Source: Nemertoderma westbladi (taxonomy: Eukaryota > Animalia > Xenacoelomorpha). From it: a DNA stretch of 41,737 bases. Position numbers and translations under genes: made by a program. The stretch is from positions 1 to 41,737 of the forward strand of contig JAUCBJ010001101.1 in assembly GCA_032718475.1 (NCBI GenBank), in the 5' to 3' direction. Of this stretch, positions 2 through 40,350 are shown one piece after another (within the stretch, counting starts at the first letter, position 1; every line of letters begins with the position of its first letter). Below the pieces are notes generated by a model that saw nothing but the letters and a program-made list of their open reading frames with translations, was not told the DNA's origin and did not search any database.

Positions 2-1423
2 GACCGCAGAAGCGGGAGTCGCCAACGTTGTAGCGGGCGGACGAGGGACAACGGGCGACAAATCATGAATATTTCGCTCGGGGTCCAGGACCTGAACTGT
101 CTCCTGGGCAGTTCTACTGGGCACAGGTAGCTTAGTGCTGTGCAGAGGGAATTTAGAGGTAGCTTCATGGAGCACAGGTGTGTCTATCACCGAAGGGGTG
201 ATTTCAAGAACAGGCCTAATTATTTCAGGCTCATCTGCTATAGTAGGGAGTCTTTCTATTTTAATTATTTGGTCTGTGGGCTCTGTACTACCTAAGTTGG
301 TGTTATTTAGTTGCCGTCTAACAGCTGGAGGCAAATCAGGCAATTTCTGACGGTGGAATGTTCTTTTACGTCTGCTTAGACGAGATCTATTTCCTTTGCC
401 TTCAGTATCGGTGGTATCGCCTTCCTCAGATGATGTATATCCCTGTCTTTTGGGAGTAGATCGATTCATCATCTGCATATTACTAGCTGTTAACTGTTTA
501 CTGAAGTCGTCTTGCTTCTCTTGAAGATTTTCCAACTCCAGTTGGGCGATCTCTTCAGCCGCTCTCCGTTCTGCTTCCGCCACCGCTGCCGCTTTTGCCT
601 CTGCCGCTGCCGCTTTTGCCTCTGCCGCTGCTTCTGCTGCTGCCGCTTTTGCCTCTGCCTCTGCTTCTGCTGCTGCCGCTTTTGCCTCTGCCGCTGCTTC
701 TGCCAAGGTCGCTTTTCTTTCTGCCTCTGCCTCTGCCACTGCTGCTATCTTTCTGTCTTCTATACGTTTTTTCCTTACTTGTTCTTCTTGGTCTCTAGCG
801 ATGCGGAGTTGTTCATCGAATTTAGCTTGGTTCGCCGCTAACCTATCCACATCAATTGCATCCAACACACACTGGGCTCCTTCACTATTAGGGCTAAGTC
901 CATCTAGCTTTCTCCTCAACTCTTCATCTCCCAAAAAACGTTGATAGTCTGACAGATAGATGTCAATGGCATCCCTCTTATGCGGTTTCTCTGCTGTCGC
1001 TTCGCTTTCTTCTTGAGAAAAAGTGGCGTCGGTTGATTCTTCATATGTTGGCCGTTCATCATAAACCGTATCCGCCATCTTCGCTCTGCGTTCGGGCGTC
1101 CGCTCAACAGTATCCGAACTACTGGAGCTGTCGGACCGCTGAGAAATAAGTTCTTGGCTCGCGGGTTGTTGCTGTTCCGCTGCTTCTTGGTCTCGCTTGA
1201 CCTGAGCTCGAGTGCCTATGATAGACCTACGATGTTGGACCAGCCTCGGTTCTGTTATTACTACTGTAGGGATGACCTTGCTTACAGTAGGAGGGGACTT
1301 GGACTTTGGTCTTAGACGCTCTATACTCTTAGCTGAGTCCCAGATCTTTTTAAGACCCTGTCTAACACTCATTCTAGCACTTTCTAAGAGGCTATCTGAC
1401 AATGTTTGTTTTGTGTCAGACAT
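2..1423 (-). CDS. Gag-position ORF (N-terminal part, >=474 aa) of an LTR retrotransposon; continues beyond the window start
   Basis: Manual translation from ATG at 1423 (MSDTKQTLSDSLLESARMSV...) stays open to the window edge, so it has no stop and is missing from the ORF track. It contains an Ala/Glu/Lys repeat (AEAAAEAKAAAEAEAEAKAA) and a Pro/Thr-rich segment. It lies downstream of a 5' LTR on the same strand. No diagnostic Gag motif is visible, so the call rests on position. Confidence 0.7.
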   Translation of the reverse strand, partial: MSDTKQTLSDSLLESARMSVRQGLKKIWDSAKSIERLRPKSKSPPTVSKVIPTVVITEPRLVQHRRSIIGTRAQVKRDQEAAEQQQPASQELISQRSDSSSSSDTVERTPERRAKMADTVYDERPTYEESTDATFSQEESEATAEKPHKRDAIDIYLSDYQRFLGDEELRRKLDGLSPNSEGAQCVLDAIDVDRLAANQAKFDEQLRIARDQEEQVRKKRIEDRKIAAVAEAEAERKATLAEAAAEAKAAAAEAEAEAKAAAAEAAAEAKAAAAEAKAAAVAEAERRAAEEIAQLELENLQEKQDDFSKQLTASNMQMMNRSTPKRQGYTSSEEGDTTDTEGKGNRSRLSRRKRTFHRQKLPDLPPAVRRQLNNTNLGSTEPTDQIIKIERLPTIADEPEIIRPVLEITPSVIDTPVLHEATSKFPLHSTKLPVPSRTAQETVQVLDPERNIHDLSPVVPRPPATTLATPASAV

Positions 1424-1554
1424 GTTTGTTTGATTGTACAGTTGAATGCCTACTGCTATATTACAGTCTAAGCAAGTCTAGTAATTCAGCATTAACTGCT
1501 AGCCTAGTAATTAATTACCGATACTGCTACTCAGTGTAGCGTGATATATATATA

Positions 1555-1820
1555 ATATATTAGAATACCGGTATGCTTATGGTATATAGAAGTATTATTA
1601 CAGACTAGGTTTTTCACAAAATACCGGTATATAATTTTAGCACAAAAATATATATAAATATATAATAGGCCTATCGTGGATACCGGTATGCAGTTTACAC
1701 TTATAGTATATATAAGTATAATTATTAACTAAAATTAATTACAGAATACCGGTATGATTTCAACCTAAAATTTATAGAAATAAATATAATAAGCCTATTG
1801 TAAATACCGGTATGTCAATT
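1555..1820. repeat. Degenerate ~60-bp tandem repeats with an ATACCGGTAT core in the leader
   Basis: ataccggtat recurs at about 1566, 1621, 1680, 1747 and 1805. Confidence 0.7.
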
Positions 1821-2754
1821 ATTTTAGAATAATTGAATTTCTGAATTTTAAGGGTTACTTGGTTACTTTAACTTACTTTATTACCGTTATTTAAGCAGTA
1901 GTCCAACTGATATTGAGACCTAATTGTTGTATGGCAGGCCTACTATTTATAAATCGTTTGAGTTGATTTATAATATATATACCCGTTTTAATGGGTTTTG
2001 TCAATGTTTGAAATAAATGTTATTATTTCTGGGGAGTAATCACTACACAAAGCGGTGCGCTTTCAGTGAAGTGTTACTTATAGGACACTAAAACAAATAA
2101 TTCTAATTTACCTAAGTTACTTAATACTACAAATTACGTACGATTCGGGTTGAGATTACAATCTCTAAATAAACACAAAAATTTACAAAAAACACAAAAT
2201 TCGAAATTTTAGGGTAATTTTACAAGAAGTCTACAAACCAGCCTAACAAAGGGTTAGAAATCTGGTTATTACAACGGACAGGGTACTGCGGTATTTGAAA
2301 ATTATACGTAGTAGTAAATACACTGCGTTGTCCAGATAGGAAAATACCACCGCCTGACGACCTATAGCCGTATCGCTATAGGTACTACGTTATGTATCAC
2401 GGAGTGTCCCTACCTAGAAGTTAATAGAGCTAATCGAACGTGCCTATCAACCACTTTACAACACAAATATAATGCCTACACTAATTACTTTCGGAAAGTA
2501 CTGTACACTAAACCCTAAATTAGGTACAAGTACTTGTATAACAAATAATCAGTAGTTAAAAATACTTGAACAGCTAAAAGAACCACGGTATCTGCTGGAG
2601 TGACCGGTGCACAAAATCACCAGTCTTTACCTTCGCCGAGCAGCCCGTATAGTACCGGGGTTAGTTTAACTATAACGGTATGTATAACAAACACAATTAC
2701 TGTAGGAACAAACTTGGGGAATATGAATGTTGCGAATAATCGCATAAACTCTGA

Positions 2755-3330
2755 ATAATAAATATTACGCTACGCGTACAAACCACTCAAACAAAGTGCA
2801 GACCAAATACTGACAGACTACTATCAAGCCTAAATAAACTACAGGACATGCAGACTCCGAAATGATTAGGTAGTATGCGTTCTAACCCAGTAGTACGACT
2901 TATTCTTTAGATGGGGGTTTACCTTAGCAGCTTTGGCTGCCCCTACTTCCTAACCGTTCTTTATCGGACAGAGGCTCTACACACACTGCAATCCGTTCAG
3001 ACCTAATAACAGCCAGACAACTATCCAGCCCACAAATTATCTAAATAAATATTATACGCTACCTGTACAGACTACACAAACAAAGTACAGACTAAACGAT
3101 GGCAGACTACTCTCAAGCCTAAATAAACTACAGGACATGCAGACTCCGAAATGGTTAGGTAGTATGCGTTCTAACCCAGTAGTACGACTTATTCTTTAGA
3201 TGGGGGTTTACCTTACAGCTTTGGCTGCCCCTACTTCCTAACCGTTCTTTATCGGACAGATGATCTACACACACTGCAATCCGTTCAGACTTAACAACAA
3301 TCAGACAACAGCTCAGCCTACAAATTGTCT
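2755..3330. repeat. ~289-bp tandem duplication in the retrotransposon leader
   Basis: aagcctaaataaactacaggacatgcagactccgaaatg... occurs at 2826 and 3115, with a near-identical core of ~180 bp. Confidence 0.9.
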
Positions 3331-3600
3331 GTACAATCTGATCAGGCTTACACGCCTTCTGTTCAATACTGGCCTACAAACAAATAAAACCGACAGAAAC
3401 AAGTAAAATCTCAATAAAAAACCAGGGCGGCCGTTCCCTGATTAAGTACTAAGACCTACCGGTATATAACTATCAAATTCGAATAATACTAATGCACCTG
3501 TACTGGTGTAGGTACCGGTCCGGATGATCAGGCAGTCAGGCCTACTGGTTACCGGTCGACCGGTACTTTCGACTTTATTGCTTACTGCAATAAAGAAGCA

Positions 3601-3611
3601 ATATCCGTTAT
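3601..3611 (-). promoter_or_regulatory. Primer-binding-site position: ATAACGGATAT (non-TGG), complementary to LTR 4328-4338
   Basis: Immediately 3' of the LTR terminal CA on the minus strand. Exact 11-nt reverse complement of minus-strand ATATCCGTTAT at 4338-4328. Confidence 0.6.
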
Positions 3612-4801
3612 TGTTCGCGCTTTCAGACCTTTGGCAGTTTAACCCGCCAAATTAGGATGTCTTCTAGATAATAAATCGCTTTAGCCTCTAACAAGTATTT
3701 GATTCACTACACTAGTTGAAACCAATCTGTGCGCGATCATTCACCCGTTGGATATACCCGGGAGATTGACTTCGACGGCTTAATCTTATTGCTATGTAAG
3801 CCTAATGTATTATTCGACTGACAGTATTATATAATCTCTGACAATATTATTCACCTTCGGGGAATATTAACAGTTCCTTTAGGACGTGGCGCTCTATCTA
3901 TATAAACAGAGTTATGACTTAAACTACTCACAACGATATGGCTTAGTTACAATTCACATATATGGCGCATTCTTTAGGAAATGCTTCGTTATCAGTCTCA
4001 CTCATACACAATGCTGCACAATACTGCACACTAATCTGCCGATCTTCATTGATTTTAGTCACATATAAAAGGAACACAGACCGACTCATGTAGGGTCTAT
4101 CAAGTAACATTAGATTCACTTCAAACCACTTTAACATAAGTCACAATCGTTATATGTAACCTGTCTCTCTTACCTTCTGTATATCAAGAATATTGGGTTT
4201 TCGGGGTTATTTATCGTTATTCCAAATATAATAATTCATCAACCATATTATGAAGAACCGACAGTAAATAGCAGTATAACAATATAAAAGTATGCACAGG
4301 TTGTTTGATTAGGTATGGTATGTTATGATAACGGATATATGTCCTTATAATTAAGCCTACTAGTGTAAGGCTAAAGCAGAAAAGCACAAAATACTCCAAA
4401 GCCGTTCTTCCTTGGCTCAGGACTGAATGATAACACTGCCCATAATGCATTACGTGATTTCTCGGAAATTTCTGTACAAGAGCCATAAAAACGCTCTGAT
4501 TGGTTGACTGAACTGAGAGATGCCGTAGAACAAAGAAAATCGACACGTATGAATATCAGCTGTTAACCGTCGTCATAGTAACTACTGTTCAAGAGTATCT
4601 CGCTTCTTTTGCGTCACGGAATTGCCATAGAATCATCAACTATGCCTTCCACAGTACACATACGGAAGAAATAGCTCTTAGATCCTCTAAAAACACCGAT
4701 ACAGCAATAATACGGCCTCTTACGCCTATTAAACCAACTACAGAGTATTTTACGGGAAAAATAAGGAAAAATAACCGGGCAATTCAGCAAAAGCTTTTAC
4801 A
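3612..4801 (-). repeat. 5' LTR of element 1 (1190 bp)
   Basis: On the + strand it begins tgttcgcgc and ends caaaagcttttaca. Both termini are shared with 38573-39771. Colinear similarity covers ~3612-4355, and the remainder (putative U3) is diverged. Right flank is aggat (candidate TSD). Confidence 0.85.
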
Positions 4802-5125
4802 AGGATCAGGTAGCAGTGGCGGGAGTTTGTAACCAAAACAGTACAACTCAAGTACACTGGTTACAGGTATTAAGAGACCTGCTCCAGGACGTTGTTGTCT
4901 AAACGCGTGTTGTCTGTCTGTATCCCATGTGCCCATCCGCAAAACGAACGGACTTAAAGGTTTAATAATTAATTGTACGTCTACTCTACCGGTAGAGCCA
5001 GTATAAATTTTCTTGCGTGCTGATGACCGACTATTTGGTTGTTACAATTTTCGTTGGGTGGGTTCAGCTTACCAAACAAACCCTGCAAATGCTGACCTCT
5101 ACGGTAGCTCTACCCTCTACAGTAC

Positions 5126-5936: not shown

Positions 5937-7319
5937 ATAAGAGAGATGCTTTTGGCGTTGGTTTAGAAGAGGCAAATGAGATTTCCATGGATACTGGTTA
6001 TGCTCAGGTAGCATCACACAGAAACGAGCAGCTGCAGCGTCAATTTTCGGAATCGGTCAGGAAGGTGGAGTCCACATCATCAGCATGCAGTCCAAATCAA
6101 TCATCTACAGCAGCAGACAGTCTAAAGCGATCATCTACAGCAGCAGACAGCCCAAATCAATCATCTACAGCAGCAGACAGTCTAAAGCGATCATCTACAG
6201 CAGACAGTCCAAAGGGATCATCTACAGCAGCAGACAGTCTAAAGCGATTGTCTACAGTAGCAGTCAGTCCAAAGGGATCATCTGCAGCAGCAGTCAGTCT
6301 AAAGCGATCGTCAACAACAGCCGCAGTCAGTCCAAAAAGATCCTCAACAACAGCAATCAGTCTAAAGGGATCTTCTACAACAGCTGTCAGTCCAAAGCGA
6401 TCGTCTACAGTAGCAGTCAGCCCAAAGGGATCGTCTACAGCAGCAGTCTGCCCAAAGGGATCATCTACAACAGCAGTCAGTCCAAAGGGATCATCTACAG
6501 CAGCAGTCAGTCCAAAGCGATCATCTACAGCAGCAGTCAGTCCAAAGGGATCGTCTACAGCAGCAGTCAATCCACAGGGATCGTCTACAGCAGCAATCAA
6601 TCCAAAGGGATCGTCTCCAGCAGCAGTCTGCCCAAAGGGATCATCTACAACAGCAGTCAGTCCAAAGGGGTCGTCTACAGCAGCAGTCAGTCCAAAGGGA
6701 TCGTCTACAGCAGCAATCAGTACAAAGGGATCGTCTACAGCAGCAGTCTGTCCATATCAATCATCTACAACAGCAGTCAGTCCAAAGGGATCATCTACAG
6801 CAGCAGTCAGTCCAAAGCGATCATCTACAGCAGCAGTCAGTCCAAAGGGATCGTCTACAGCAGCAATCAGTACAAAGGGATCGTCTACAGCAGCAGTCAG
6901 TCCAAAAGGATCATCTACAGCAGCAGTCTGCCCAAAGGGATCATCTACAACAGCTGTCAGTCCAAAGCGATTGTCTACAGCAGCAGTCAGTCCAAAGGGA
7001 TCGTCTACAACAGCAGTCTGCCCAAGGGGATCATCTACAGCAGCAGTCAGTCCAAAGCGATCATCTACAGCAGCAATCAGTACAAAGGGATCGTCTACAG
7101 CAGCAGTCAGTCCAAAAGGATCATATACAGCAGCAGTCTGCCCAAAGCGATCATCTACAGCAGCAGTCAGTCCAAAGGGATCGTCTACAGCAGCAGTCAG
7201 TCCAAAGGGGTCGTCTACAGCAGCAATCAATCCAAAGGGATCGTCCAGCATTAGATTGTCAATGGGCAGTGCAGTGAAGTCCTTTACATCGGTAACTGAA
7301 AGTCAGGAGCCTAGTGAAG
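5937..7319 (+). CDS. Putative internal coding exon: Ser/Ala/Thr-rich decapeptide repeat (SSTAAVSPKG/R)
   Basis: Lies within ORF 5909-7324. It has an acceptor-like cttgcag|A at 5936/5937 and a donor-like GAAG|GTTAGA at 7319/7320. Length is 1383 nt (divisible by 3, phase 1-1). Non-repetitive flanks are also open. An alternative is a single-exon ORF from the ATG near 5987. Confidence 0.45.
6088..7250. repeat. 30-bp minisatellite (~38 copies), consensus tccaaagggatcgtctacagcagcagtcag
   Basis: Direct 30-bp periodicity; the few length variants (27 and 33 bp) keep the frame. Confidence 0.97.
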
Positions 7320-8799
7320 GTTAGATTCAGGAATAGGATATAACCATGAATAATGTGTTTCATCTTTAATATCTGTGTAAACCATAAATTATAGTAATAC
7401 CATCAAGTCAACCATCTTTCACGCAAATTATTTACTATATTATATTGGCCTATGTACAGTAGCTATTGAAATGATGTTGTTATTAATGTTGTTATGTTAC
7501 ATACAGTATATCTCAAATCGCAATAAAATATAAGTAAATTATTTTACTCTAACATTTTGCATTTGCTTTACATATAAATTCTGTCCATTACAAAAAAATA
7601 TATAATGCAATTAAAGACTTCCGTATGATTTTGGGGGGTAAATGAGAGCCTTCCAGATGATATGGATACCGAAAAAGAATCGTCGACGTTGACTTAGCTA
7701 CTCAAGATTCAGAACTTCGTATACCTGTAGCTGGTCCTATAAATCTGGTCCTACATCCTTCCATATTTTTTTCCTCTGCTTAACACTTTTCACTCATTAC
7801 TTGTGTGAAGAATGATTCATAGAAGGAATCTGAAAAGTTTTTTACAAGACGTAATTATTATTTTTGGTGCATTTAATTCGTTTATTTAGTTATTCTACCA
7901 AAACAGTAAACTTAACGATGGTTTATAGGAAACTGTTAACATTTTATATATGTACAGAAACAGCAAGATCTCTTTTTCTTCTCGAGATATGAATGTCTGT
8001 CTGTCCGTCAAAAAAAATAGGAAAACACGTTATCTGCCTACAAATTCCCAACAGGGATTTTCCTTATCGGTAATAACATAATACATACAGTACTAGGAGC
8101 CCTTAAGAAAACTATAATCATTATTTCCTGATTGATAATAAACTGGGTACCTAGCAACGCCATCAGCTGGTTTCAAAATGCCATATGTACATAATTGTAC
8201 ATATCAACATCATTGTCAAACATCATCAATATCAACATTGTCAAATGTACTTAATTAGCGCAGATAGGGACTATTACTCATGATTGATTTTAAAGGAGTT
8301 ATAAGGATGCAGTAAACCCTCTACAGTACTCAAACACCGGTCAGCCGGGGGTGTAATCGCTACGCTGACAACCGACAACCAACGCCGACAACCATTATTA
8401 AAGCAAATTAATGTTAATTGTCGATTGAGGGAGGAAATGGAACAGGACACGGTGGAAAGTTATCGGCGTAGCGTTTACACCGGTCAGCCGGTACATTGCA
8501 TTTGTATAACGCTCAGATTGGAATCCGCTTTCATTTTATTAATACAGAACCTATATCTACAACCCTACAGCAACCATTTCCTCTTGGTTCGCTTTCATTG
8601 TACTAAAACGATGCCTAATCGTCTGTACTTGTGTACAGTTGTATATTGTATTGTGAATTGGAAATTAAAGTGACCTTTCTCTGCAACTCTCCACTACAGA
8701 GGATGCGTAATTGTTGTTTGTATATAAACAAATAGCGAACTGGTTTGTTAATTTTTTGGACCGGTTCTTTGGCCTATGAAGTGGTTAAATAAGTTACTA

Positions 8800-9080
8800 A
8801 GAATTCCTACGAATTACTACGAATTTATATTTAGCGCCTCCTAGCGGAGGACCATGTAAATGCACGACGCCAAAATTCTGAAAACTTTATAAACTTTTGA
8901 CATACAGTACTACTTGTGTACCACGTTTGGTATAATTTCATCAACGATTCGTAGTTAGTGTACTATTTACTGTAATAGCATTCAAAGATTAGACGGACCA
9001 ACCGACCAACGACAGGCAGACCGACAGGTAGAGATTGGTACCCGTATTCTAATCTCGCTCACTTTCGTGGCTCGCCCCAC
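8800..9080 (+). mobile_element. Possible non-autonomous Helitron/Helentron-like fragment
   Basis: Has gac(a/g)gac-type microsatellite-like tracts. It ends in ttcgtggctcgcccca, whose reverse complement recurs at ~28302-28318. Confidence 0.3.
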
Positions 9081-11179
9081 AGTGTTAGTCAATTTAACGG
9101 CTGCTTGTCAGTTCTGTCACTGGCCCTGTGTTACCGAATAGTGACTCTACAGTAGTTAGTTGTTTTAAGGGCAACCACTATTTAATCCAGCTGTTGGTTG
9201 GTGGTTGGCGTGTAAGGTACCCTGTTTAAAACCAATCAGGAAATAGTGATGATTCTAGCTTTTTTAAGGGCTCCTATATTATTATTAATTGATAAGAAGC
9301 GGGGTATATAACATTACAGTATACATAATCCAAATTCAAATAATACAACAATTATTGTCCAAGAAAATATCAGAATATCACCTGAGAAAAACCTCATTTC
9401 AAAACAGATTATCATGTATATACTGTAAACCTAGGAAAAACTGTCCAACATAACTGTCCAAAATAACATCTAACCAAAGTAAAATTGTAAAACCTACGAT
9501 AAATATTAACCGATAATACTTTCCAACGTTCGTATCGCAATCCAACTTTCGTAATCCGAAATATAAATCAAAAGTACGAAGCACTTCCTTCACCATCAAT
9601 AACGACTAAAAGCAGTTCATTGACTAGTAATATAGTGCTGTGAGAAAAGTTATGGTTCTGCTAATTTTAAAATATCGAATGCCGCTTCTGCTACTGCGCT
9701 CTGTTGCGAAGAAGACAGAAACTGAGTAAGAAAGGAAAAGTTTAGCATGGCGAACTTTGGCGATTGACGAACACTAGTAATTAACTCACACGAGGCTATT
9801 ACGTGATCTTCTGTAAACTCGATAAAGACAGACAGAAATCAATTTTATTTTAAAATATAAAAGACAGACAGACAAACAGACGGGTCTTTATTATTGCCAT
9901 TAAAACCACCTAATTCAATCGCCTTCTTATTGGTTGAAAATTCAAATATTTCAATCGTCCAATCAGAGACTGCTTGAAATTAGGATGTTCTAACGCCTCC
10001 TACCGGTCGGTAGCTGCTGAGCAAACTAATCAGCTGAGGTGTATTTTCTAATGTGGTGAATCATGGCCTACTAAACTGTACTACGTGTAGTAGGCAATGT
10101 GGTGAATCGATTAATAGTACATAGTACTGCTGTACTGCAGTAGGCCTAATTACTGAATTATAAGCATCTAAGGTGTATATAACTCTAAATTCTAGAATTT
10201 AAGGATTTGAACTCAAATACTGGGCCTCTTTAGCATAAACACTGCCGCTACTCCAGTACAGCAGTAGGCCTACTCCGTGTACCGGGATGCCGTGTACTGC
10301 AGTTCTGCAGTAGGCCTACTGCATGCACTGATCAGCTGGTCAGCTCGTACCTGCGTACTGCTGTACCGGTGCACGTACAGCAGTACACTGGCTGACTGGT
10401 ACAGGCCCTATTGAAAAGTTTTACATGTACGCCGAACACGTTCGGCGCAGCACTAGAACTTGCGCTGGGAGCTGGCGCAGAAATGTGCTACGCCGGGCAA
10501 TGAGCCGGAAGGGTCGGCGCAGAGATGTGCTACGCCGGCGTAGCCGGCAGAGAACTGATAATGATAGAGATGCTGCGCTCGGCGCAGCAGGCGTCGAAAT
10601 ATTCCCGGCGTCGTCACTGCAGAAATTGACCCGGCGCCGGAGCAGGAATCAGCCCAGCACACCCGGTGTACATAGGCCTATTTGCCTGGCGCAGAAATCA
10701 TCCGAACCTAGCACCAGGCAGACAGTGTGACTGAGACAGCACGACAGCAGATATGCGTTCATCAGACCAACACTGCAACAGCACAGCAACACAATAACAA
10801 CTGGCCATGGCTGCATGCAGGAGGCAGAATGGGAATTCACGCTAGCTGATTGAAACTGGTCATTTATTTACGTATTTAACCTTATGCTGTTATGAAGTAG
10901 GCATGTAGGCTATCACAGTTCCAGCTATCAGCTGATCAATCAGTTTATTTATTTACATATTGCTGTATTGTACTGTATAAGATATATTTATAATATATTA
11001 TATTATTTGGATGGAGACACCGCTGTCATAGAAGCGTATAAATAAAACTGCACATAATAAAACAGGATAAAGTTGAACAGTGAATAAAACAAAAACGACT
11101 TATACACTATTGGCAATTATACACTACCGGCAATGGCACTATTGATAATGAAACAATTTATTACTGACACATAGGCCTT

Positions 11180-15286: not shown

Positions 15287-15393
15287 ACTGTAATAAAGTA
15301 GTTTTTGACTAGGCCTATATAGGCTGTTGGATATATATATATGTAAAAAGGGTCATTCAAGTCACCCTGTTTTACAGTTGGCCTACCGGTATA

Positions 15394-18300
15394 ATGGATG
15401 AGGTTGGAAACGATGTAATGAAGAGGATTCGTGAAATGACAGCACCGCCTATAGACCCACAGGCAAATGAAGTTCGTAATAGGAGACCCAGTCAGACTGT
15501 TGGAGCTAAAGTTATATACAAGAACTCCAAAGACAGAAAAGCTGTATGTAACGGCTGTAACGAGGGAGGGGAGTTATTGTGCTGCACACGGTGTCCGGTT
15601 GCGTACCATTTTGGTTGTTGTGACCCGCCAATCACGGAACAGGACGCCCCGTCTCTAGGGGAATGGCTTTGTAAGAAGTGCACCAGCTCTCTCCCACCCT
15701 CCGCTCGACGTCAGATGCCGGTATTTAAAGTGAAGCTGTTGGAGCCGTCGGTGGCGAAGAAACTGAAAAAAAGACCTGTTCCACCGCGGCACAGTAGGCC
15801 GACTAGGCCTATATCAAATAAAACGAAATCAAAGAGAGTTACAATGAAAGTTAAACCGACTAAAGACGATTCAAATTCTAAGAAAAAGACAACCCACAAT
15901 AAATCACCTTTGACAAATCGCGAAGGTTCTGTAAAAAAAGTTTCTAAGACATCCCCTATTTTGAATAAAAAATGTCTATCTTCCTCGGGGAAGTCCACCA
16001 GACCTCTAAGTGACAAAGGTAGCACGTCCAAGAAGGCTACATTGGTCAGCAAACATAACAAGCTGAATAAGTCCCTTTCCAGAGCGCATAGTGGTAAAAA
16101 ATCAACTAAGAGTATAAAATGTCCCTCAGTTCGCGCTTCCGTTCAGTTGAAGCGGGCTATAAAGGAGTCCGCAAAACGGCGCTCGGAGAAAAATCGCGCT
16201 ATTGTTAAAGAAAAAACTGAAAGGAAAACAAAGAAGGTAAAACCGCCCTCCACCATTCCTAATGTTTCTGTCAAGAAGTCGAATACCGGTAATACGGATT
16301 CCCTTATATCGAGTAACAGAAGTACCGGTACCGGTAGCTCTAAAACACCCAAAACTAAACGTACCGATATTGAATCGGGAGGAAAGTTTTTGAAAGAGTT
16401 GAAAGTAAATATTTTTAATGAGAAACCTGAAAATAAAAGTGATTCAGTTCCTGTCGCTATGGATTTAATATCCAATCACTCATCGTCGTCGAAGGGTCAG
16501 TCCAAGGTATCCCCTGCGTCGGTGGACAAGAATGTGATAGTCGGGGAGCGGTTGTCGATGAGGATGGCCCTGAAACAGTCGCTGAAGGAGACCAAGGAAG
16601 ATCACTGGAAGTCCGTTAGAACGAAAGTTAAAGATCCTCTATTCGGTAGGAAGATACCGCTGTTCGAGGCGGAGCCGTTGATAGATCCGCAGCTGTTAGC
16701 GAAACTCGTGTTGGAGAAACGGGCGGAAACAGGGGACCACATCGATGACGTCGAGATCGCGGATAAATTAGTTCCCAGAAGGAACAAGCGGTTGAGTTCG
16801 GATGTGGGCGCGGCCTCGTCGGATGTTCCTGCAAAACGTCGTGTTCAAAGCGAAAGCAACTTGTTCAAGGCCGATCTCGATTCCATTGTTAAAGACGTAG
16901 ATAGCGTTGTAGAGGCTGATGAAGTAAAGATGATCTCTATCAGGGAGCGTAAGTTTACTAAAGCTGCTAAGAAATCCTTTATGGGTTACCATGATAGTGA
17001 GTTAGATGCGGACAGGAAGTCGGACAGCGACGAGAGCGGGGCCACGCTGGTTCTGTCGCCGGACACGCATGTGTTGAAACCGGTGTCGGAACTGCGGCAG
17101 GAGACGCCGGTGGTTGAGTGGTTGGACGCCGAGGTTGAGGTGGATGGGTCGGTGACGGATGAGTTGGACGAGGATGTGGTGGACGAGGTTGAGGAGACCG
17201 TTGACGAGGTCATTGTGGAGGATACATCAGATCTGTTGGCGGGCGGCTGCTACTACCTACCCAGTCCACCGCCCGCGGCCTCGGAGACTACCGAAGTTGC
17301 GGAACCTTCTCCTTCCCGGATTCAGTCGACGATGGACGTTCTATTGAGAGCCGCGAGTCTGACCAACCCAACCGAGTACTCCCTGCCCGCTGGCGCGCTC
17401 TCATTGGTCAACCTTCCGTCCACGTCGATCGGCACTAAACAACCGGAGCCGCGCCGCACCATCGAACCAATCAACGGCGTCGTCCCTCAGCCGCCGCGGT
17501 TCTGCTTCGTCTGCAGCGCCACCTGCCGTCTCGCTGCGCTCATTGAGTGCGACTTCTGCCCGCTGGTCTACCACCTGGACTGCCTGACCCCCCCGCTGAC
17601 CGTGCCGCCGGTGGGCCAGTGGCTGTGCCCCGCCCATCCCGACCACGGGGTTCCTGAGGCCACCTCGATCCGCTACTCCGAGCGGCTCAAGGCCCATTCC
17701 AGTCTGCGGGAACCCGTCGACCAACACGCCGTCAAACTCAGTTTCATTAAGCAGGCGGCGCGCGCCGCGCAGCACTGGCCCCCTCACGGCGCCACCCAGT
17801 TCGTGGCGCGCCGGCGCACCTCGGTGCCCCCCGCAGTGGCGGCCATGTACGAGCGCCCCCTGCCCCCCACGACGGCCCCCTCGGGGGGGTCGGAGCCTTC
17901 CGCGTATCGCAACGCGCTACTCACGGACGACGAGACGTCCTGGTTGCGATCCGTTATACAGATACAGTCGGAGTTCGTCCGCTCGGAATCCCGGGAGGCG
18001 TTGCAGCGGGTCCTACCGGGTGCGAGTCGGGCCAGCGAGTGCGAGGAGACTCGAGATGATCCGGACGGCAAGAAGTACCCGACGAGGAAGAAAGTGATGA
18101 CGGCCAAGATGTTGGAGCATCGAGCGACGTTGAAACAACGATCCGCAGTGGCGCAGTCGCCGCCGAGGAAGGCGGTTAACGTAGTGGCGCCGTTGCCGCA
18201 GTCGGCAAGCCGCGCCACCCCGACCGACAGACAACGTCGGGTCACCCTGGACGAGGCCCGGAGGTTTCTCGAGGAACTCAACCTACAGATGGACACGACT

Positions 18301-18936
18301 CGTCTTCCCGATATTTATTCATTAGACCCGGGGATTCGGGATTTATTGGCGATGCAGCGACTGCGACAGATGTTCCCGTTAGCGGCGAGACCTGCCAGCG
18401 CCGAGGAACCACTCCAGCCACCAGATACCCCGCTCGGTAGGGCGGTACTCGTTCACACCGACGGCACTCGCTTCTCTATGACGTCATCCACGCTGGCTAT
18501 CGGGAACTCGGATGAGTCGGATGTTAACCTGTCCGGAATCTCCGGTTGCAACCGAGTCTCCCCGGAACACGCCGTTATTGTCTACGATAAACACTCCAAC
18601 TCATTCGAGTTGATCAACTACAGTGAGTTCGGTACCGTGGTAGACAGTGTCGCCTACGCGTGCGGTCTGCCGTCCCGTTGCGGTCCCGTCTTGGGTGACA
18701 CCACTAGCGGGGGCTACTGGAAACCAATAGTAAACCCGCAGGGCGTTGCTTGTGGTTGCGGAGACTCAGATATTCCAGGGATGGGTTGGGAGGGGCCCGC
18801 GAATCTACGCAACGGGAGTCGCATTCTTATTGGCTGCCACAGTCTGCAGTTCGTACCCTCCGTGGGTGGGAGCAGTGTGAGCGGTAGCCAATCACATACA
18901 GTTGTGTCAAACAATACGATTGGAAATAGTAATTGA
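15394..18936 (+). CDS. PHF12: PHD finger protein 12 (Pf1) homologue, Sin3/HDAC complex subunit, 1180 aa, single coding exon
   Basis: N-terminal MKRIREMTAPP; PHD1 CNGCNEGGELLCCTRCPVAYHFGCCDPP...GEWLCKKC; MRG-binding-like LLRAASLTNPTEYSLP; PHD2 CFVC...CDFCPLVYHLDCLTPP...WLCPAH; LLAMQRLRQMFP helix; C-terminal FHA-like domain (LAIGNS...CNRVSPEHAVIVYD...LINYSEFGTVVD...GWEGPANLRNGS). Confidence 0.92.
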   Translation: MDEVGNDVMKRIREMTAPPIDPQANEVRNRRPSQTVGAKVIYKNSKDRKAVCNGCNEGGELLCCTRCPVAYHFGCCDPPITEQDAPSLGEWLCKKCTSSLPPSARRQMPVFKVKLLEPSVAKKLKKRPVPPRHSRPTRPISNKTKSKRVTMKVKPTKDDSNSKKKTTHNKSPLTNREGSVKKVSKTSPILNKKCLSSSGKSTRPLSDKGSTSKKATLVSKHNKLNKSLSRAHSGKKSTKSIKCPSVRASVQLKRAIKESAKRRSEKNRAIVKEKTERKTKKVKPPSTIPNVSVKKSNTGNTDSLISSNRSTGTGSSKTPKTKRTDIESGGKFLKELKVNIFNEKPENKSDSVPVAMDLISNHSSSSKGQSKVSPASVDKNVIVGERLSMRMALKQSLKETKEDHWKSVRTKVKDPLFGRKIPLFEAEPLIDPQLLAKLVLEKRAETGDHIDDVEIADKLVPRRNKRLSSDVGAASSDVPAKRRVQSESNLFKADLDSIVKDVDSVVEADEVKMISIRERKFTKAAKKSFMGYHDSELDADRKSDSDESGATLVLSPDTHVLKPVSELRQETPVVEWLDAEVEVDGSVTDELDEDVVDEVEETVDEVIVEDTSDLLAGGCYYLPSPPPAASETTEVAEPSPSRIQSTMDVLLRAASLTNPTEYSLPAGALSLVNLPSTSIGTKQPEPRRTIEPINGVVPQPPRFCFVCSATCRLAALIECDFCPLVYHLDCLTPPLTVPPVGQWLCPAHPDHGVPEATSIRYSERLKAHSSLREPVDQHAVKLSFIKQAARAAQHWPPHGATQFVARRRTSVPPAVAAMYERPLPPTTAPSGGSEPSAYRNALLTDDETSWLRSVIQIQSEFVRSESREALQRVLPGASRASECEETRDDPDGKKYPTRKKVMTAKMLEHRATLKQRSAVAQSPPRKAVNVVAPLPQSASRATPTDRQRRVTLDEARRFLEELNLQMDTTRLPDIYSLDPGIRDLLAMQRLRQMFPLAARPASAEEPLQPPDTPLGRAVLVHTDGTRFSMTSSTLAIGNSDESDVNLSGISGCNRVSPEHAVIVYDKHSNSFELINYSEFGTVVDSVAYACGLPSRCGPVLGDTTSGGYWKPIVNPQGVACGCGDSDIPGMGWEGPANLRNGSRILIGCHSLQFVPSVGGSSVSGSQSHTVVSNNTIGNSN

Positions 18937-19548: not shown

Positions 19549-21431
19549 TGAAACATTCAGTTACGTTCTGTAACATTCTGTTACATTCAGTTGCGTTCTG
19601 TAATATTATGTTACATTCAGTTGCGTTATGTAACATTATGTTACATTCAGTTGCGTTCTGTAACATTATGTTACATTCTGTTGCGTTCTGTAACATTATG
19701 TTACATTCTGTTGCGTTCTGTAACATTATGTTACATTCAGTTGCGTTCTGTAACATTATGTTACATTCAGTTGCGTTCTGTATCATTATGTTACGTTCTG
19801 TAACATTATGTTACATTCTGTTGCGTTCTGAAACATTATGTTACATTCTGTTGCGTTCTGTAACATTCTGTTTCATTCAGTTGCGTTCTGTAACATTATG
19901 TTACATTCTGTTGCGTTCTGTAACATTATGTTACATTCAGTTACGTTCTGTAACATTCTGTTACATTCAGTTGCGTTCTGTAATATTATGTTACATTCAG
20001 TTGCGTTATGTAACATTATGTTACATTCAGTTGCGTTCTGTAACATTATGTTACATTCAGTTACGTTCTGTTACATTCTGTTGCGTTCTGAAACATTATG
20101 TTACATTCTGTTGCGTTCTGTAACATTCTGTTACATTCAGTTGCGTTCTGTAATATTATGTTACATTCAGTTGCGTTATGTAACATTATGTTACATTCAG
20201 TTGCGTTCTGTAACATTATGTTACATTCAGTTGCGTTCTGTAACATTATGTTACATTCAGTTGCGTTCTGTATCATTATGTTACGTTCTGTAACATTATG
20301 TTACATTCTGTTGCGTTCTGAAACATTGTTACATTCTGTTGCGTTCTGTAACATTCTGTTTCATTCAGTTGCGTTCTGTAACATTATGTTACATTCTGTT
20401 GCGTTCTGTAACATTATGTTACATTCTGTTGCGTTCTGTAACATTATGTTACATTATGTTGCGTTCTGTAACATTCTGTTACATTCAGTTGCGTTCTGTA
20501 ACATTATGTTACATTCAGTTGCGTTCTGTAACATTATGTTACATTCAGTTGCGTTCTGTAACATTATGTTACATTCAGTTGCGTTCTGTATCATTATGTT
20601 ACATTCTGTTGCGTTCTGTAACATTATGTTACATTCTGTTGCGTTCTGTAACATTCTGTTGCGTTCTGTAACATTATGTTACATTATGTTGCGTTCTGTA
20701 ACATTCTGTTACATTCAGTTGCGTTCTGTAACATTCTGTTACATTCAGTTGCGTTCTGTAACATTATGTTACATTCAGTTGCGTTCTGTGACATTATGTT
20801 ACATTCAGTTGCGTTCTGTATCATTATGTTACATTCTGTTGCGTTCTGTAACATTATGTTACATTCTGTTGCGTTCTGTAACATTATGTTACATTCTGTT
20901 GCGTTCTGTAACATTATGTTACATTCTGTTGCGTTCTGTAATATTCAGTTGCGTTCTGTAACATTCAGTTGCGTTCTGTAACATTATGTTACATTCTGTT
21001 GCGTTCTGTAACATTATGTTGCGTTCTGTAACATTCTGTTACATTCAGTTGCGTTCTGTAACATTATGTTACATTCAGTTGCGTTCTGTAACATTATGTT
21101 ACATTCAGTTGCGTTCTGTAACATTATGTTACATTCAGTTGCGTTCTGTAACATTATGTTACATTCTGTTGCGTTCTGTAACATTATGTTACATTCTGTT
21201 GCGTTCTGTAACATTCTGTTACATTCAGTTGCGTTCTGGAACATTATGTTACATTCAGTTGCGTTCTGGAACATTATGTTACATTCAGTTGCGTTCTGTA
21301 ACATTATGTTACATTCAGTTGCGTTCTGTAACATTATATTACATTCAGTTGCGTTCTGTAACATTATGTTACATTCAGTTGCGTTATGTAACATTATGTT
21401 ACATTCAGTTGCGTTCTGTAACATTCTGTTT
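19549..21431. repeat. 30-bp satellite of three related 10-bp subunits (ttacattcag-ttgcgttctg-taacattatg)
   Basis: Direct periodicity; subunits are occasionally dropped or duplicated. Confidence 0.97.
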
Positions 21432-24004: not shown

Positions 24005-25423
24005 GGCTTCCTGGAAAAGATGCAACAGCTCTATAACCAATCGTCACCATTGGCGCAACAGCTCTATAACCAATCGTCACCATTGGCGCAACAACCTAGG
24101 ATTGGTTTATTCATTCCACTCTAATTCCATTTGCTCGTACATTCTTTTGCGTTCTATAAGATTATATTTCTGTAACGCTGATGGCGCGACGAACACAGAA
24201 CAAAAGCAAAAAAATACCGGATGTAGTCTGACAGCACCAAAGGCAGCCCAGAAGACAGGTCGTTCAGCCGATTGCTTTGCTACCCACTGCTAGCCCTAAA
24301 ACTTATGATATGAGCCGACTTTTTTTAATAGTTCTTCTGCTACTGAACTTTGTTGTAACGGAATACAGAGATTAGGCCTACTAATGGATATTCTTTCACT
24401 ATCACTATCTGCACTATAGATAGAGCCTTATTGGACTATTAGGTGTACCGGCTGACCGGTAATCGACGATGTAGAATCTGTTTCTGGCATTAATTTGTAT
24501 ACAATCAGACAGTATTGATAGATACTGGAGATACTGTATGTGCCTATTACAATAAACGAAAGTCAATATAAAAACCGGTTAGACTTTTGCGAGTAATCAT
24601 TCTTTTTTTTTTTTTGCGTCGACTTTCCCTGGAAGCCTTTTGATTCCGTCTTGCGTCGAAAGACCACCCCCCCCCTCCTTTTTTTGCTGTACCGGTACTT
24701 TACAATGTAAAGTAAACTTATCTGTGTTGAAACAGTAGACACAAACGTGGTGGAACCATCGTACAGTGATCCGTGATCGGATTGCTGCAATAATTTCCTC
24801 GGGAATCCCATATGCTGCAAGTATATGCCGAATAATACGTGGTCGTGGTCGGGAGACTGAAAAAAATCGAAGGCCTTGAAGAAGTCAACAAAGATAATAC
24901 CAAGACGTTATGTCTTTTTTGTTTATAACTCTTCGATTTATCCTTCTAAGCGCCAGAATAGCTAGGCATGCATATACTGTAGTAGCAGTATAGGCTAGCC
25001 TACAGTATATGCATTAGCGCTGCCTGGCATTATTAGCACGGTAGGCCCTATAGATCGTAACAGCTCTTTTGTATTGTTATTGGCAGGTTTTAGCTCGGTT
25101 TACCACTGTGTACGTACCACTGGATTGTTATACCTCGCACCTCGGTATAGTTTGGTATCTCTTTTAGAAAGTACCTTGCTTTATTACATACAGTAGTTTA
25201 GACAGCAGGATTAATATTCTGTTATAATACCTTGCACTGTCAGACTGTAGTTTTGGCTATTCATTGCTTAGTTGCGCCATCGGCGCTACAGAAATATAAT
25301 GTTATAGAATGTACAAGCCAATGTAATTAGAGTGGAATGAATAAACCAATCCTAGGTTGTTGCGCTGTTGCGCCAATGCTAACGATTGGTTATAGAGAGC
25401 TGTTGCGTGTTTTCCAGGAAGCC
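24005..25423. mobile_element. Non-autonomous TIR element (~120-bp TIRs) just upstream of BROX
   Basis: ggcttcctggaaaa..gcaacagctctataaccaatcgt...aacctaggattggtttattcattccactctaatt at ~24005-24126 is inverted at ~25326-25423. No ORF, and the TSD is unclear. Confidence 0.8.
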
Positions 25424-25720
25424 CAGGGAATGTAGAGTAGAGATACCGAAAATACTCGCCTATGATTGGCTCAGGCTAACCCTCTTACAGGAAACGGGCC
25501 AAAATGAAGTAGTTGTATATTTCTGCTGAGCCATCTAACATACGTTTGCAGTTTTCATATACCGGAGATACCAGGTTCCGGATACTGCTGTACTGTTCAC
25601 AGTTCACAGCTACCGATACTGTCAGGTCAGGGTGTAGGTAGTGGCAGTGGGTAGACCTGTAGACCAAGGCTTAGTACTTCAGTACAGCAGTAGTTGGCTT
25701 CAATACAGCAACATAAGAAC

Positions 25721-27007
25721 ATGGCTCATTGGTACCACCGAAACCCAATCAAAGCGACCTGCCAAGAAAACTTCGCCCTTCCCACGATCGCCTCTATCGG
25801 GGGAAACGCCCGTAAACTGATTTCCGATATCCGAGCTGCCCGTGCCAAACTTCTTGTACTATTTGGTGACGCTAACAACACTGTACCTGTGCTGGAATCC
25901 GCGCTTAACGACTACCTCTCGCTACTCCGTGGACTCATAGAAGCGTCTGACGATAAGGGAGGAGAAAGTAAACTGCGATACTCGCTCCGCTTCAAGTGGA
26001 CAAACTCGTTACTAGGTAACGGGGTAAACACGCAACAGGACGCCGTGTACGAGCTGTGCGGCGTCCTCATAAACGCGGCGTTATGGTACACGAAACGAGC
26101 GGCGTTGCTAGCGGCGGCCGACGTTGTGTCTCCGGATCAGGCCAAGGAGGTTCACACGTGTTTGCGAACCGCAGCCGGCGTGTTCGGCTATGTACGTGAC
26201 GCACAAGCATCGTCGCTCGCGGACAGCGGCCCTGCCTGCGGCGACTGCGACACCAACATGTTATCGGCGTACGCGATGCAGTGCACCGCGGAAGCCCAAG
26301 AGATAACGATGGCGCGCGCCGTAGAACTCAAACACAACTCCTCGTTAATTTCGGCGTTGGCGTTGGAAACTTCGCGGATATTCAAACAATCCTCAGACTA
26401 TCTACTGACTCTAACCAAGGATTCAGAAGATAAACAAAGTAAAGTCGCTAAATGGCGTCGTTATCTAGACTTTAAGGAGTCTGTTTATCTATCGTACGCG
26501 CATTGCTACCACGGACAGGTGTTACTGGACCAGGACCGATGCGGCGACGGTATCCGCTCATTGCGAGAAGCCAAATCGTTGGAGGAGCGAGCCGTGAAAC
26601 TAGGCGAGGATTACGCTAGAACCAAAGGAGCAGGGGCCACCGCGAAGCCATGGAAACATCCATTCTTCCTTAAACTCGGGCCCAAAGTCGAGGCCATCAA
26701 GACCAAGGTGGAGCACGAGAATGGCTTTATTTACTTCCAGAAGGTCCCAGAGGAACTCCCCGAGATGGAGGTGAAGGCAACCCACGGCCTGGTGGAACCC
26801 CTTCCGTTCTCTCTACCCAATATAAGTCCATTGTGGAACCCTCAATCCTACCTCGCCTTCGAGATACAGATGCAGCCGTCCGAAACAGATCGCGCCAAGG
26901 AACGGGAGGCCAACGCTAAAAGTAAGGAGGAACTCCCTCCAGTAGCGGAACGCGAGATCCCCGGAACACAGAACGCTAAATCCGAATCTGGGTGTGTCAT
27001 CCAGTGA
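25721..27007 (+). CDS. BROX: BRO1 domain-containing protein BROX (428 aa), ESCRT-III adaptor, single coding exon
   Basis: Starts MAHWYHRNPIKAT, the typical BROX N-terminus. Other motifs are SKLRYSLRFKWTNSLL, QCTAEAQEITMARAVELKH and EHENGFIYFQKVP. It ends in a CaaX box, CVIQ. The start is taken as the ATG at 25721 rather than the TTG at 25694. Confidence 0.95.
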   Translation: MAHWYHRNPIKATCQENFALPTIASIGGNARKLISDIRAARAKLLVLFGDANNTVPVLESALNDYLSLLRGLIEASDDKGGESKLRYSLRFKWTNSLLGNGVNTQQDAVYELCGVLINAALWYTKRAALLAAADVVSPDQAKEVHTCLRTAAGVFGYVRDAQASSLADSGPACGDCDTNMLSAYAMQCTAEAQEITMARAVELKHNSSLISALALETSRIFKQSSDYLLTLTKDSEDKQSKVAKWRRYLDFKESVYLSYAHCYHGQVLLDQDRCGDGIRSLREAKSLEERAVKLGEDYARTKGAGATAKPWKHPFFLKLGPKVEAIKTKVEHENGFIYFQKVPEELPEMEVKATHGLVEPLPFSLPNISPLWNPQSYLAFEIQMQPSETDRAKEREANAKSKEELPPVAEREIPGTQNAKSESGCVIQ

Positions 27008-27980
27008 GCTGGTAACTTTATAGACTGGGGCATTATCTACCCTAATAATGTATTCGCATTAATTTATTTATATCCCTATTGTGCTCCTTTATTTTTAATG
27101 TATAATAATGAGGGTTTATCGGAACAGCGATTAATATTCTATACGCGAAATATTGAAACTTTTGTAGTTTCCGTTTTAATATTTAATTAATTACACAATT
27201 ATTATTATTCTTCACCCAATTAACTCCCTTCTGGATTCACTGTGTTTCGTAAATTAATAGAAAATTCCCGAATTTTCTGAGGAGATTGGGGTTTTAGGTT
27301 GGGTTTCTAACTACAACATTGTATCGGTTACCCTGTATTGTCCGGCACCGGCCCACATAGTCGGAGTATGTGAGGAGTTCTATGCGAGGTGACTTTCTCA
27401 CAGTTCATTGGAAATACATTCTTATTATGTAAAACGTGAGTTTCTACCGCGTTAGCCGTGTAAACAAAATATATGTGTCAAACAATGGTAGACTAAGTAG
27501 AATATCTCCGAATTACTACATATAATAACGATTAGGTTGGGTATGTATAATTACGATACAACTCGATGTTGCGTTGGTTGATTGTTAAAAACTTATACAT
27601 ACAAACTGCATGTTATATAATACTTTATTTAATATTTAAATACGCGTATTATTAACCGTAATACTAATTAAAGCTAATTAATAACTTTACCCACATGTAT
27701 CACTAATGATTTTAAAACTGCACATCTAATATAAACAAATAGTGAACTCAATAAAGCCAATAATGGTGTTACGTAATTTATTCTAAAATTGAATTAATTT
27801 AATTGATTTTATTTGTGGAGATAAAAAATATTTGATTAAGATTTTTCATAAAATTTGGTATCATCGTTCAAAATAAATTTAGAAAATTATTCACGCGTTT
27901 AGAAGTTATAAACTTGTTGTTCCCCAACAACGTCATAAACAAAAGGGGTTTATTGAAATATCAGTTAACCACTAGAAATA

Positions 27981-29183
27981 GGGGTGTTTGAAAAAGGTGG
28001 ACTGGACACAGAAAACATGGACAACGGACAGACCAATCACGGGCGATTTGCGTCACACAGCTTGTCCACCTTTTTCAGCTTTGTTGTCCACCTTTTTCAA
28101 ATTTGAATAAGGTGGACTGGGTTGAGAAAGAACAGGCAATGAATTGACCAATCAGATTGATTTGCGCATTAGAGCAGCTCTGTCCACGTTTTTCAAAAAA
28201 TTTCAGAAGGTTTTTATGTATTCTGGGATTATTATTGTTATTATTATCCCATACTTACTGTGACAAACCGAAGTTGTCGAAATAGGCCTAGTTCAATAAT
28301 ATGGGGCGAGCCACGAAGTCTGAGAGCTGAGCCTTACAGCCTTAGCATCAATATTGGAACGTCAATATTCTAACTCATTCATTACAGTATAAAGTTAATT
28401 ATAATAACTACCTATTGTATTGTGAGGGAAATATAATATGCTTTATTTACCGTTCATCCCGAGATCTGTTATTAAACGACCGAGCGCACCGAGGGAGGTA
28501 AATAAGTCCCCATATTTTGGGAGTTGAGGTCCGAAACCCTAATTCAAAGTGGAAATGGAGGCCCAAAGCCTTAATTATAAAACAGTCATGTGACCCCAAC
28601 CTTAAATATTTTGGCTCCTAAATTCCACAAAATTTCTTAGATTAGAGCATCAGGACTTTAGGGCTACTAATGACAGTTTTAATTAGGGTTTGGACCTGAC
28701 CAACTAACCCAACCACAAAAATAAACCAATAAATCCAAGTTAAAGTGCTGTACGGTACGCTAGACCTACTATTAATATACTGTAAGTCTATAGGAGAGCA
28801 ATCCGCAGGGGGGGGGGGGGTGCTATGGGGGTAGATACGCCTAGGACACCGGCAGCATTCTTAATGCAACTGCTTCCAGCATGCCCATTATAGATAGATA
28901 ATTGAAACCTGAAAAGGTGGACAGTCCAATCACTAATAAATACAGTAGTAGCATTGCTTTAATACGTTTCTGATTGGTCAGACTATAATGTGTGTTTTTT
29001 GTGCATGTGTCCAGTCCACCTTTTTCAAACACACATCTTATTCCCAATTATGTAACTAAGAAAGCGGAAACTTGAAAAAGGTGGACAGACCAATTGCTAC
29101 AAACTGCTTTGCTTAATACGTTTCTGATTGGTCTGTCCGTTGTCCATGTTTTCTGTGTCCAGTCCACCTTTTTCAAACACCCC
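27981..29183. mobile_element. Young non-autonomous DNA transposon (MITE-like) with perfect ~59-bp TIRs and a TSD
   Basis: GGGGTGTTTGAAAAAGGTGGACTGGACACAGAAAACATGGACAACGGACAGACCAATCA is inverted at the other end. Flanks are tagaaata (8 bp), or ctagaaatag (10 bp) if the termini are GGG/CCC. Subterminal aaaaggtggac repeats are present. Superfamily is uncertain (MULE or Merlin-like). Confidence 0.9.
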
Positions 29184-29340
29184 TAGAAATAGCTATATAA
29201 AGAGAGAATATGCTAAATTAAGTTCTTAGCAGTTCTATAATAATCATATAGTAGTAACACTATGATAAATAAAATGAAATTGAATTGCAATGTTGTTGTG
29301 TGACAACATCATAAAATAGCATAATTACTCATCTTTGCGG

Positions 29341-39771: not shown

Positions 39772-39849
39772 CCGCTCCCAGAAAATGGGATTTAAGTCTA
39801 TAAAATATACAAAATCACAGTTTCTAAAATATAAAAATACTCTAAACAG

Positions 39850-40350
39850 TTAGTCTTTCTTGCGCGGACGGCGTTTACGCAGTTTTTTAAAGCTAGCAAG
39901 AGTCCTTTTCTCTTTGGGGCGAGCCACTTTACGAGGAGGGCTATAACTCCTGGGTGAAGGGTGCAATATGATTGCATCAGAAGGTATGGGATTGCGATCG
40001 GTATATCCGCCGGTCGAAGTACCGGGTTGATTGACCTCAACGTCCGGGGAGAGGGGTCTAACGGCTTTGAGAGCTCGTTTCAAGACAGCCGCTCTTACGG
40101 GTCCTGTACGAGTGGTCTGCACGAGGGCCGTGGGTGGACCATAGGTAGTTAGAAACTTCCTTGGTTTAATGGTTCTTTCCAACTCGCGTTCGCGGGCTCG
40201 ATACTCGTAAGGCCGTCGATATACTTCCTGTAACTCGGGGTGTGAGTTGACAAATAAGTCTCCATAGGCAGGGTCTTGACGGATAAAGTTTATTAAGTTG
40301 TAATGTAAGTTACAGCGAAACGACGGGATAGCAACTGCATAAGCTGCCAA
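39850..40350 (-). CDS. Uncharacterised basic ORF or ORF fragment between integrase and PPT
   Basis: 166 open codons with coding-like GC content, ending ...KKLRKRRPRKKD about 80 nt before the LTR. The true start is unclear and it overlaps the integrase end in another frame. Confidence 0.45.
   Translation of the reverse strand: MAAYAVAIPSFRCNLHYNLINFIRQDPAYGDLFVNSHPELQEVYRRPYEYRARERELERTIKPRKFLTTYGPPTALVQTTRTGPVRAAVLKRALKAVRPLSPDVEVNQPGTSTGGYTDRNPIPSDAIILHPSPRSYSPPRKVARPKEKRTLASFKKLRKRRPRKKD

Follow-up and report, generated by a model that had tools for sequence, protein, structure and literature searches.

What primes reverse transcription of an LTR retrotransposon whose 5' LTR is followed by no tRNA-type primer-binding site (PBS)? 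This question was raised by a 41,737-nt stretch of Nemertoderma westbladi DNA (contig JAUCBJ010001101.1; the whole stretch is called the window below), in which the 5' LTR of element 1 (LTR1, 3612 to 4801, minus strand, 1190 bp, TGT...ACA) is joined without a spacer to a primer-binding position that carries no TGG (PBS1, 3601 to 3611, minus strand).

A precedent exists in Tf1 of fission yeast. According to the accessible text of PMC7175516 and PMC4600332, which describe self-priming for Tf1 and Tj1, the Tf1 RNA pairs with the PBS through its first 11 bases, and RNase H cleaves between bases 11 and 12. In the general LTR scheme, as far as PMC7175516 was available, plus-strand synthesis copies the primer into the PBS. 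The available portion of PMC6317226 defines a self-primer by at least 10 bp of complementarity starting 0-5 bp after the LTR, and predicts self-priming from sequence alone for the Tcn1 clade and the TAR lineage.

We found that the letters directly after LTR1 (3611-3601) are the exact reverse complement of 4338-4328, with a match of exactly 11 nt at offset 0. The latter segment, candidate self-primer site 1 (4328 to 4338, minus strand), occupies nt 464-474 of LTR1, 716 nt before the LTR end. The 11-mer and its reverse complement each occur once in the window. Among 20,000 dinucleotide shuffles of LTR1, 15 gave a match of at least 11 nt at offset 0, and 31 of 20,000 reached the same level at offsets 0-3. 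Of the 3,581 internal 11-mers, two find a complement in LTR1, and PBS1 is one of them. The preliminary description of this locus had pointed to an 11-nt complement of PBS1 inside LTR1, and it proved to be exact, single-copy and rare in shuffled sequence. A variant seen in sequencing runs X1 and X3, among 40 of the 683 variant rows, has 66 nt around site 1 replaced. It keeps 10 of the 11 site letters, and the changed letter still pairs as G-U.

The lack of a TGG-starting tRNA PBS after LTR1, also stated in that description, was borne out, the first TGG standing at offset 187. Because this TGG is 187 nt away, a mature tRNA 3' end is excluded as the match of PBS1. The 18-nt PBS complementary to a tRNA 3' end, given by ICTV for BEL/Pao, was likewise not found within these 187 nt. 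A search of 1400-4900 against Rfam returned one match only, with an E value of 1.5, which is the chance level.

A second LTR in the window allowed a comparison. LTR2 (family 2; 38573 to 39771, minus strand, 1199 bp) adjoins a 31-bp satellite on one side and a polypurine tract (PPT, 39772 to 39779, minus strand) on the other. Because the purine tract precedes it and no target-site duplication lies around it, LTR2 reads as the 3' LTR of an element 2. Upstream of the PPT is a BEL/Pao integrase remnant (39850 to 41141, minus strand), whose 3' end is broken, which is truncated inside the zinc-binding domain, and whose frames stop about 80 nt before the PPT. Further upstream of the zinc-binding motif, 41141-41737 is interrupted by stops in each of the three frames, shows no likeness to pol by eye, and probably marks a nested insertion or deletion in element 2. 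The window contains no reverse transcriptase (RT) or RNase H from either element, and the pol of element 1 lies beyond its end.

The integrase of element 2 had 930 relatives among 4,087 candidates, with top identities of 35-43%. Because these relatives mostly bear the Pao peptidase A17 (PF05380) and PF18701, with PF03564 also carried, we assigned element 2 to BEL/Pao. As in BEL/Pao, the integrase is the last domain of pol, just upstream of the PPT and 3' LTR. Membership in the Tf1/sushi group, which has a Ty3/gypsy chromovirus pol, was rejected, as the integrase is of BEL/Pao type. A quick tree was built from 95 integrase rows, without named superfamily references; in it the window integrase formed a long branch outside every supported set, so distant relatives inform by analogy only. 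An integrase alignment search of viral contigs gave no relative, and a 22-nt motif common to LTR1 and LTR2 was absent from the viral and metagenome contigs searched.

LTR1 and LTR2 begin with the same 14 bases and end with the same 12, and an alignment of 763 columns from their 3' part gives 71% identity. The preliminary description had located a change in LTR similarity near the site, at about 4355. We found it at about 4351, 13 nt upstream of site 1: of every 100 columns, 45-55 match before this point and 62-76 in the 3' 740 nt downstream. Element 1 was said to be assigned to BEL/Pao via LTR homology only, and this appears to hold: its gag-position ORF (2 to 1423, minus strand, 474 aa in view, continuing beyond the window) matched 0 Pfam families, gave no atlas match, and had 0 matches among 1.84 billion protein representatives (50% level), leaving LTR homology as the single apparent tie.

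Between this ORF and PBS1 lies a long non-coding leader of about 2.2 kb (1424 to 3600, minus strand), with a 288-bp tandem duplication (2757-3330) and, just upstream of the ORF start, short repeats on a palindromic 10-mer (1544-1814). At the outer border of LTR1, one X1 contig matched the flank up to 4801 and then continued with 136 unlike letters, which we read as a probable empty-site allele. At the 4801/4802 junction, the X1 contig has the flank without the LTR, and an X3 contig has the junction. The insertion of element 1 therefore looks polymorphic, and hence recent. In X1, summed contig depth over 800-4900 reached 10^5 to 10^6, while the unique flank has about 29; this depth is not a copy number. 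The element 1 family is very abundant in contigs, and its ORF is without a known homologue.

Elsewhere in the window, four satellite arrays occupy 6100-7242, 19553-21430, 29347-33818 and 34383-38561, with units of 30, 10/30, 35 and 31 bp, respectively. Three segments of 1.1-1.4 kb with long terminal inverted repeats (8114-9253, 24005-25423 and 27977-29185) resemble non-autonomous DNA transposons. Two plus-strand genes, PHF12-like (15313-18936, 1207 aa) and BROX-like (25694-27007, 437 aa), are each a single unbroken ORF; PHF12 and BROX genes in animals usually bear introns. The identity of the BROX-like protein to known proteins of full length does not exceed 49%, and its best match is from a hemichordate.

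If the LTR of each family supplies its own primer, the PBS of family 2 should follow site 2 of its own LTR and not PBS1. The preliminary description had predicted exactly this, that the LTR end of family 2 is followed by the complement of its own site. Candidate primer site 2 (39316 to 39328, minus strand) aligns with site 1. We read the family-2 PBS from public contigs of four runs that run out of the 3' end of LTR2; among the 41 loose-end rows, the 21 listed included 8 at the LTR end. Four rows diverge at 38572, the position where a PBS starting with G would diverge. The predicted 12-mer follows the LTR2 end in X1 (18 contigs, agreement 0.74), which may be the sample from which the window derives, and in X5 (1 contig), a possibly RNA-derived run with another study and organism label. 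In both runs the letters agree 12/12, and pairing with LTR2 39328-39316 extends to 13 nt. X4 (3 contigs, agreement 0.63) has 9 of 11 predicted letters and X3 (6 contigs, agreement 0.54) has 7 of 11, each row mixing several continuations. The prediction therefore came true in two of the four runs, with the other two mixed.

A third PBS type, diverging at 38573, was seen in X5 (3 contigs, agreement 0.84) and X1 (13 contigs, agreement 0.58). Positions 6 and 8 set it apart from PBS1, and its partner site was not seen in the contigs. The two remaining X4 rows at the LTR2 end have no PBS-like letters and may be flanks.

Families 1 and 2 differ at 5 of 11 positions, and the changes are matched on the PBS and site sides. 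Within a family all pairs are Watson-Crick (11/11 in family 1, and 13/13 in family 2, where site and PBS were taken from different copies). When PBS1 is set against site 2, 6 Watson-Crick pairs, 1 G-U pair and 4 mismatches result, and the longest complement of PBS1 anywhere in LTR2 is 5 nt. At the level of sequence, covariation of PBS and site is confirmed by a prediction made in advance.

We then modeled the RNA around the pairing. When the RNA from 4345 to 3560 is folded, the site-PBS helix is the closing helix of the MFE structure and also of the centroid, with z = -2.6 relative to 20 shuffles. Over 20 constructs of differing ends, one of them run twice, the helix had a mean pair probability of 0.76-0.97 in six (starts at 4338, 4351 and 4370; ends at 3500-3590) and of at most 0.18 in the other 14. 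It was lost when the RNA started at 4360, or at 4380 and further upstream, or ended at 3450 or beyond; the predicted fold is fragile and sensitive to the chosen ends. The end of U5 carries a predicted structure of its own (3612 to 3739, minus strand), in which 3739-3731 forms a helix with the LTR terminus, together with a hairpin at 3651-3630. RNAalifold kept 34 of 34 U5-end pairs between LTR1 and LTR2, 2 with changes on both sides, a weak comparison of two sequences. Self-priming of Tf1 reportedly requires a stem structure in U5, adjacent to the PBS duplex.

Directly behind PBS1, a 9-bp hairpin (3573 to 3595, minus strand) is present in the MFE and centroid folds. Within it, a pyrimidine tract and a CAG ending at 3585 form a candidate splice acceptor, and this pyrimidine/CAG motif recurs behind the other PBS types in contigs. 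A candidate donor (4166 to 4176, minus strand) has its GT at 4173 and a counterpart GT at 39144 in LTR2, the donor motif being kept in both LTRs. Donor-like GT 4173 and acceptor-like CAG 3585 bracket PBS1; no 4173-3585 spliced joint was present among the contig rows listed.

There is no TATA word 30 nt upstream of 4338, and a transcription start exactly at 4338 is unsupported. LTR1 has a TATAA at 4349, and TATAAA occurs inside site 2 only. The caveat of the preliminary description that site 2 could be a TATA box is weakened by this, as the site follows its PBS rather than a TATA consensus; TATAAA not being kept between families, we judged a TATA-box role of the site unlikely. AATAAA and ATTAAA are absent from LTR1 and LTR2.

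An integrase alignment was run against metagenome contigs, and of the 530 BEL/Pao stretches, distant loci of other animals, we took the best 80 (34-43% identical) and restricted the self-primer count to the 45 of these with an ORF block of at least 4 kb. A contiguous match was an LTR-region complement of at least 11 nt starting 0-5 nt after an ACA, with the expectation taken from 12 shuffles each. Contiguous self-complements were found in 11 of the 45 loci (1.67 expected), and splice-junction matches in 2 of 45 (0.08 expected). A TGG-type PBS was present in 3 of 45; a tRNA-type PBS is usual in BEL/Pao, not universal. The other 29 of the 45 gave no match of any kind, many having the leader cut off. 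A stricter pass left 6 of 30, against 1.1 expected. The LTR ends are putative in 5 of the 11 contiguous loci (L043, L044, L062, L064 and L079), and in L006 and the splice-type L072 the end was fixed independently through a second LTR copy.

In the splice type, the PBS pairs across a predicted GT-AG junction inside the LTR, as seen in L072 (1141-1240, 1293-1311), L022 (2120-2243) and L057 (917-982), with pairing lengths of 10+5, 8+5 and 7+8 nt, respectively. For element 1, a splice-type match of at least 11 nt was looked for and was absent, site 1 being contiguous, and a splice-built primer was rejected.

In 7 of the 9 distant loci examined, an AATAAA or ATTAAA follows the site at a distance of 45-128 nt, which places the site early in R. 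TATATA stands 49 and 64 nt upstream of the site in two loci. By analogy, these relatives suggest that the cap does not fall on the first base of the site but roughly 20-35 nt upstream. In the 95-row integrase tree, seven contiguous-type loci (L006, L008, L012, L016, L018, L029 and L030) fall in one 19-row clade with an SH-aLRT of 99, fish proteins included, and the two TGG-labelled rows fall outside the large clade that contains these seven. In the seven contiguous-type loci the PBS follows a spacer of 3-5 nt, whereas the window elements have a 0-nt spacer.

Taken together, we consider it probable that both families prime like Tf1, with a 5' fragment of their own RNA in place of a tRNA. That this lineage primes from its own RNA was the central proposal of the preliminary description, and the exact 11-mer, the fulfilled family-2 prediction and the absence of TGG for 187 nt argue for it. 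In both families the paired segment of 11-13 bp has its 3' end adjoining the LTR end without a spacer, which is the geometry of a primer. Transcription would start at or shortly upstream of the site, putting it in the 5' part of R. The 716-nt R-U5 stretch is predicted to fold, joining site and PBS beside the conserved U5-end helix. By analogy with Tf1, the RNase H of the element would cut just 3' of the site and free a 3'-OH, which reverse transcriptase would extend into U5. Plus-strand synthesis would then copy the primer into the next PBS, and such copying would explain the strict Watson-Crick pairing despite drifting letters. More speculatively, splicing from 4173 to the acceptor behind the PBS might yield an mRNA without the PBS.

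Other explanations of the pairing need to be weighed. It could be structural, serving RNA circularisation or dimerisation via the 3' LTR copy, or a splicing or packaging switch, while another primer is used. A 5'-3' circularisation pairing is known in Ty1, the TATAA at 4349 could put the start downstream of the site, the candidate acceptor lies 16 nt behind PBS1, and the site-PBS helix is unstable in longer folds. However, both families have their paired segment starting right at the LTR end, the only place for a minus-strand start, its pairs are all Watson-Crick, and no other PBS is present; we regard a structural role as unlikely. The site might otherwise be the end of R, in which case the RNA 3' terminus, either trimmed or lacking poly(A), would fold back onto the PBS. 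In favour of this, both LTRs have CA and then a T/GT-rich stretch after the site, and neither has a canonical poly(A) word downstream of it. Yet no AATAAA or ATTAAA stands 10-30 nt upstream of the site, though the host genes of the window have such words behind them; U5 would measure 716 nt; and in 7 of 9 relatives a poly(A) word lies downstream of the site. Priming from the 3' end is improbable on these grounds.

A host RNA (a tRNA half, tRNA fragment or other small RNA) would be a very improbable primer, with the LTR match then secondary. Half-tRNA priming is known in Ty1/copia lineages, as the available text of PMC6317226 describes, but among the three PBS types up to 5 of the 11 positions vary, which a fixed host RNA primer would not allow, and neither a TGG nor a meaningful Rfam match in 1400-4900 points to one. 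Chance complementarity in an AT-rich LTR is hardly credible. One other internal 11-mer of the 3,581 does have a complement in LTR1, but the chance level is about 1 in 1,300 for family 1 alone, and the independent family-2 prediction came true at the homologous position, by which chance is largely refuted.

Self-priming can be compared with known systems. The window elements resemble Tf1/Tf2 (Schizosaccharomyces pombe), Tj1 and the Tf1/sushi elements (Ty3/gypsy) in that a PBS right after the 5' LTR pairs with about 11 nt inside the LTR, and in having no tRNA match. They differ from this group in superfamily (BEL/Pao integrase), in their 1.2-kb LTR and 716-743 nt loop, and in the candidate intron spanning the PBS. 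In Tf1 the primer is established as the first bases of the RNA, whereas here the site is known from sequence alone. On every sequence criterion that can be tested, the window elements appear to fit Tf1-type priming, outside the Tf1/sushi group. For Cer7 of Caenorhabditis elegans, a BEL-like element, a self-encoded complement of the PBS is said to have been proposed; our literature search found nothing relevant to it. This complement is reportedly part of the internal region, close to the 3' LTR, in contrast to the position inside the LTR here.

By the self-primer definition of PMC6317226, families 1 and 2 qualify with 11 nt and 13 nt at offset 0. The same definition underlies the predictions for the TAR lineage (Houba, Osr-1; Ty1/copia) and the Tcn1 clade, plant elements of other superfamilies. 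These cases show that the trait arose more than once, which lowers the surprise of the present finding and not its novelty for BEL/Pao.

The Belpaoviridae (BEL, Pao, Tas, Suzu, Sinbad, Dan, Flow) share with the window elements an integrase that ends pol, with PF18701-type relatives, a short PPT adjoining the 3' LTR, and an LTR length within 0.2-1.2 kb (PMC8742986). ICTV gives them an 18-nt PBS complementary to tRNA-Arg or tRNA-Gly, with the host tRNA as primer, and calls their replication poorly understood (PMC8742986). Such a tRNA-Arg/tRNA-Gly PBS was not found in the window elements, which, judged by their sequence, depart from this textbook picture of host tRNA priming (PMC8742986). The main BEL/Pao survey, in its accessible portion, has no occurrence of primer, PBS or tRNA (PMC3118150), and the parts available of PMC3601003, PMC13524379, PMC8220671, PMC3286476, PMC6934838 and PMC2864245 contain no BEL/Pao self-priming. 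A literature search, run without most subscription journals and supplements, found no published case. This agrees with the earlier statement that BEL/Pao elements are usually tRNA-primed and that no self-priming member is known.

A wider reading can be offered tentatively, with somewhat more doubt than belief: tRNA-free self-priming may be a widespread, undescribed replication mode in BEL/Pao of aquatic animals. The primer would be a capped 5' fragment whose length varies and whose pairing spans as much as 740 nt, and it would be contiguous or splice-built by lineage; in both window families, an intron from R to behind the PBS would switch the RNA between message and self-priming genome. The natural compensatory variants make self-priming directly testable, and PBS-based annotation tools would miss such elements. 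If true, self-priming in a BEL/Pao lineage would carry the Tf1 mechanism over to the third LTR superfamily, and its elements may be untouched by the host's tRNA supply and by silencing through tRNA fragments at the PBS.
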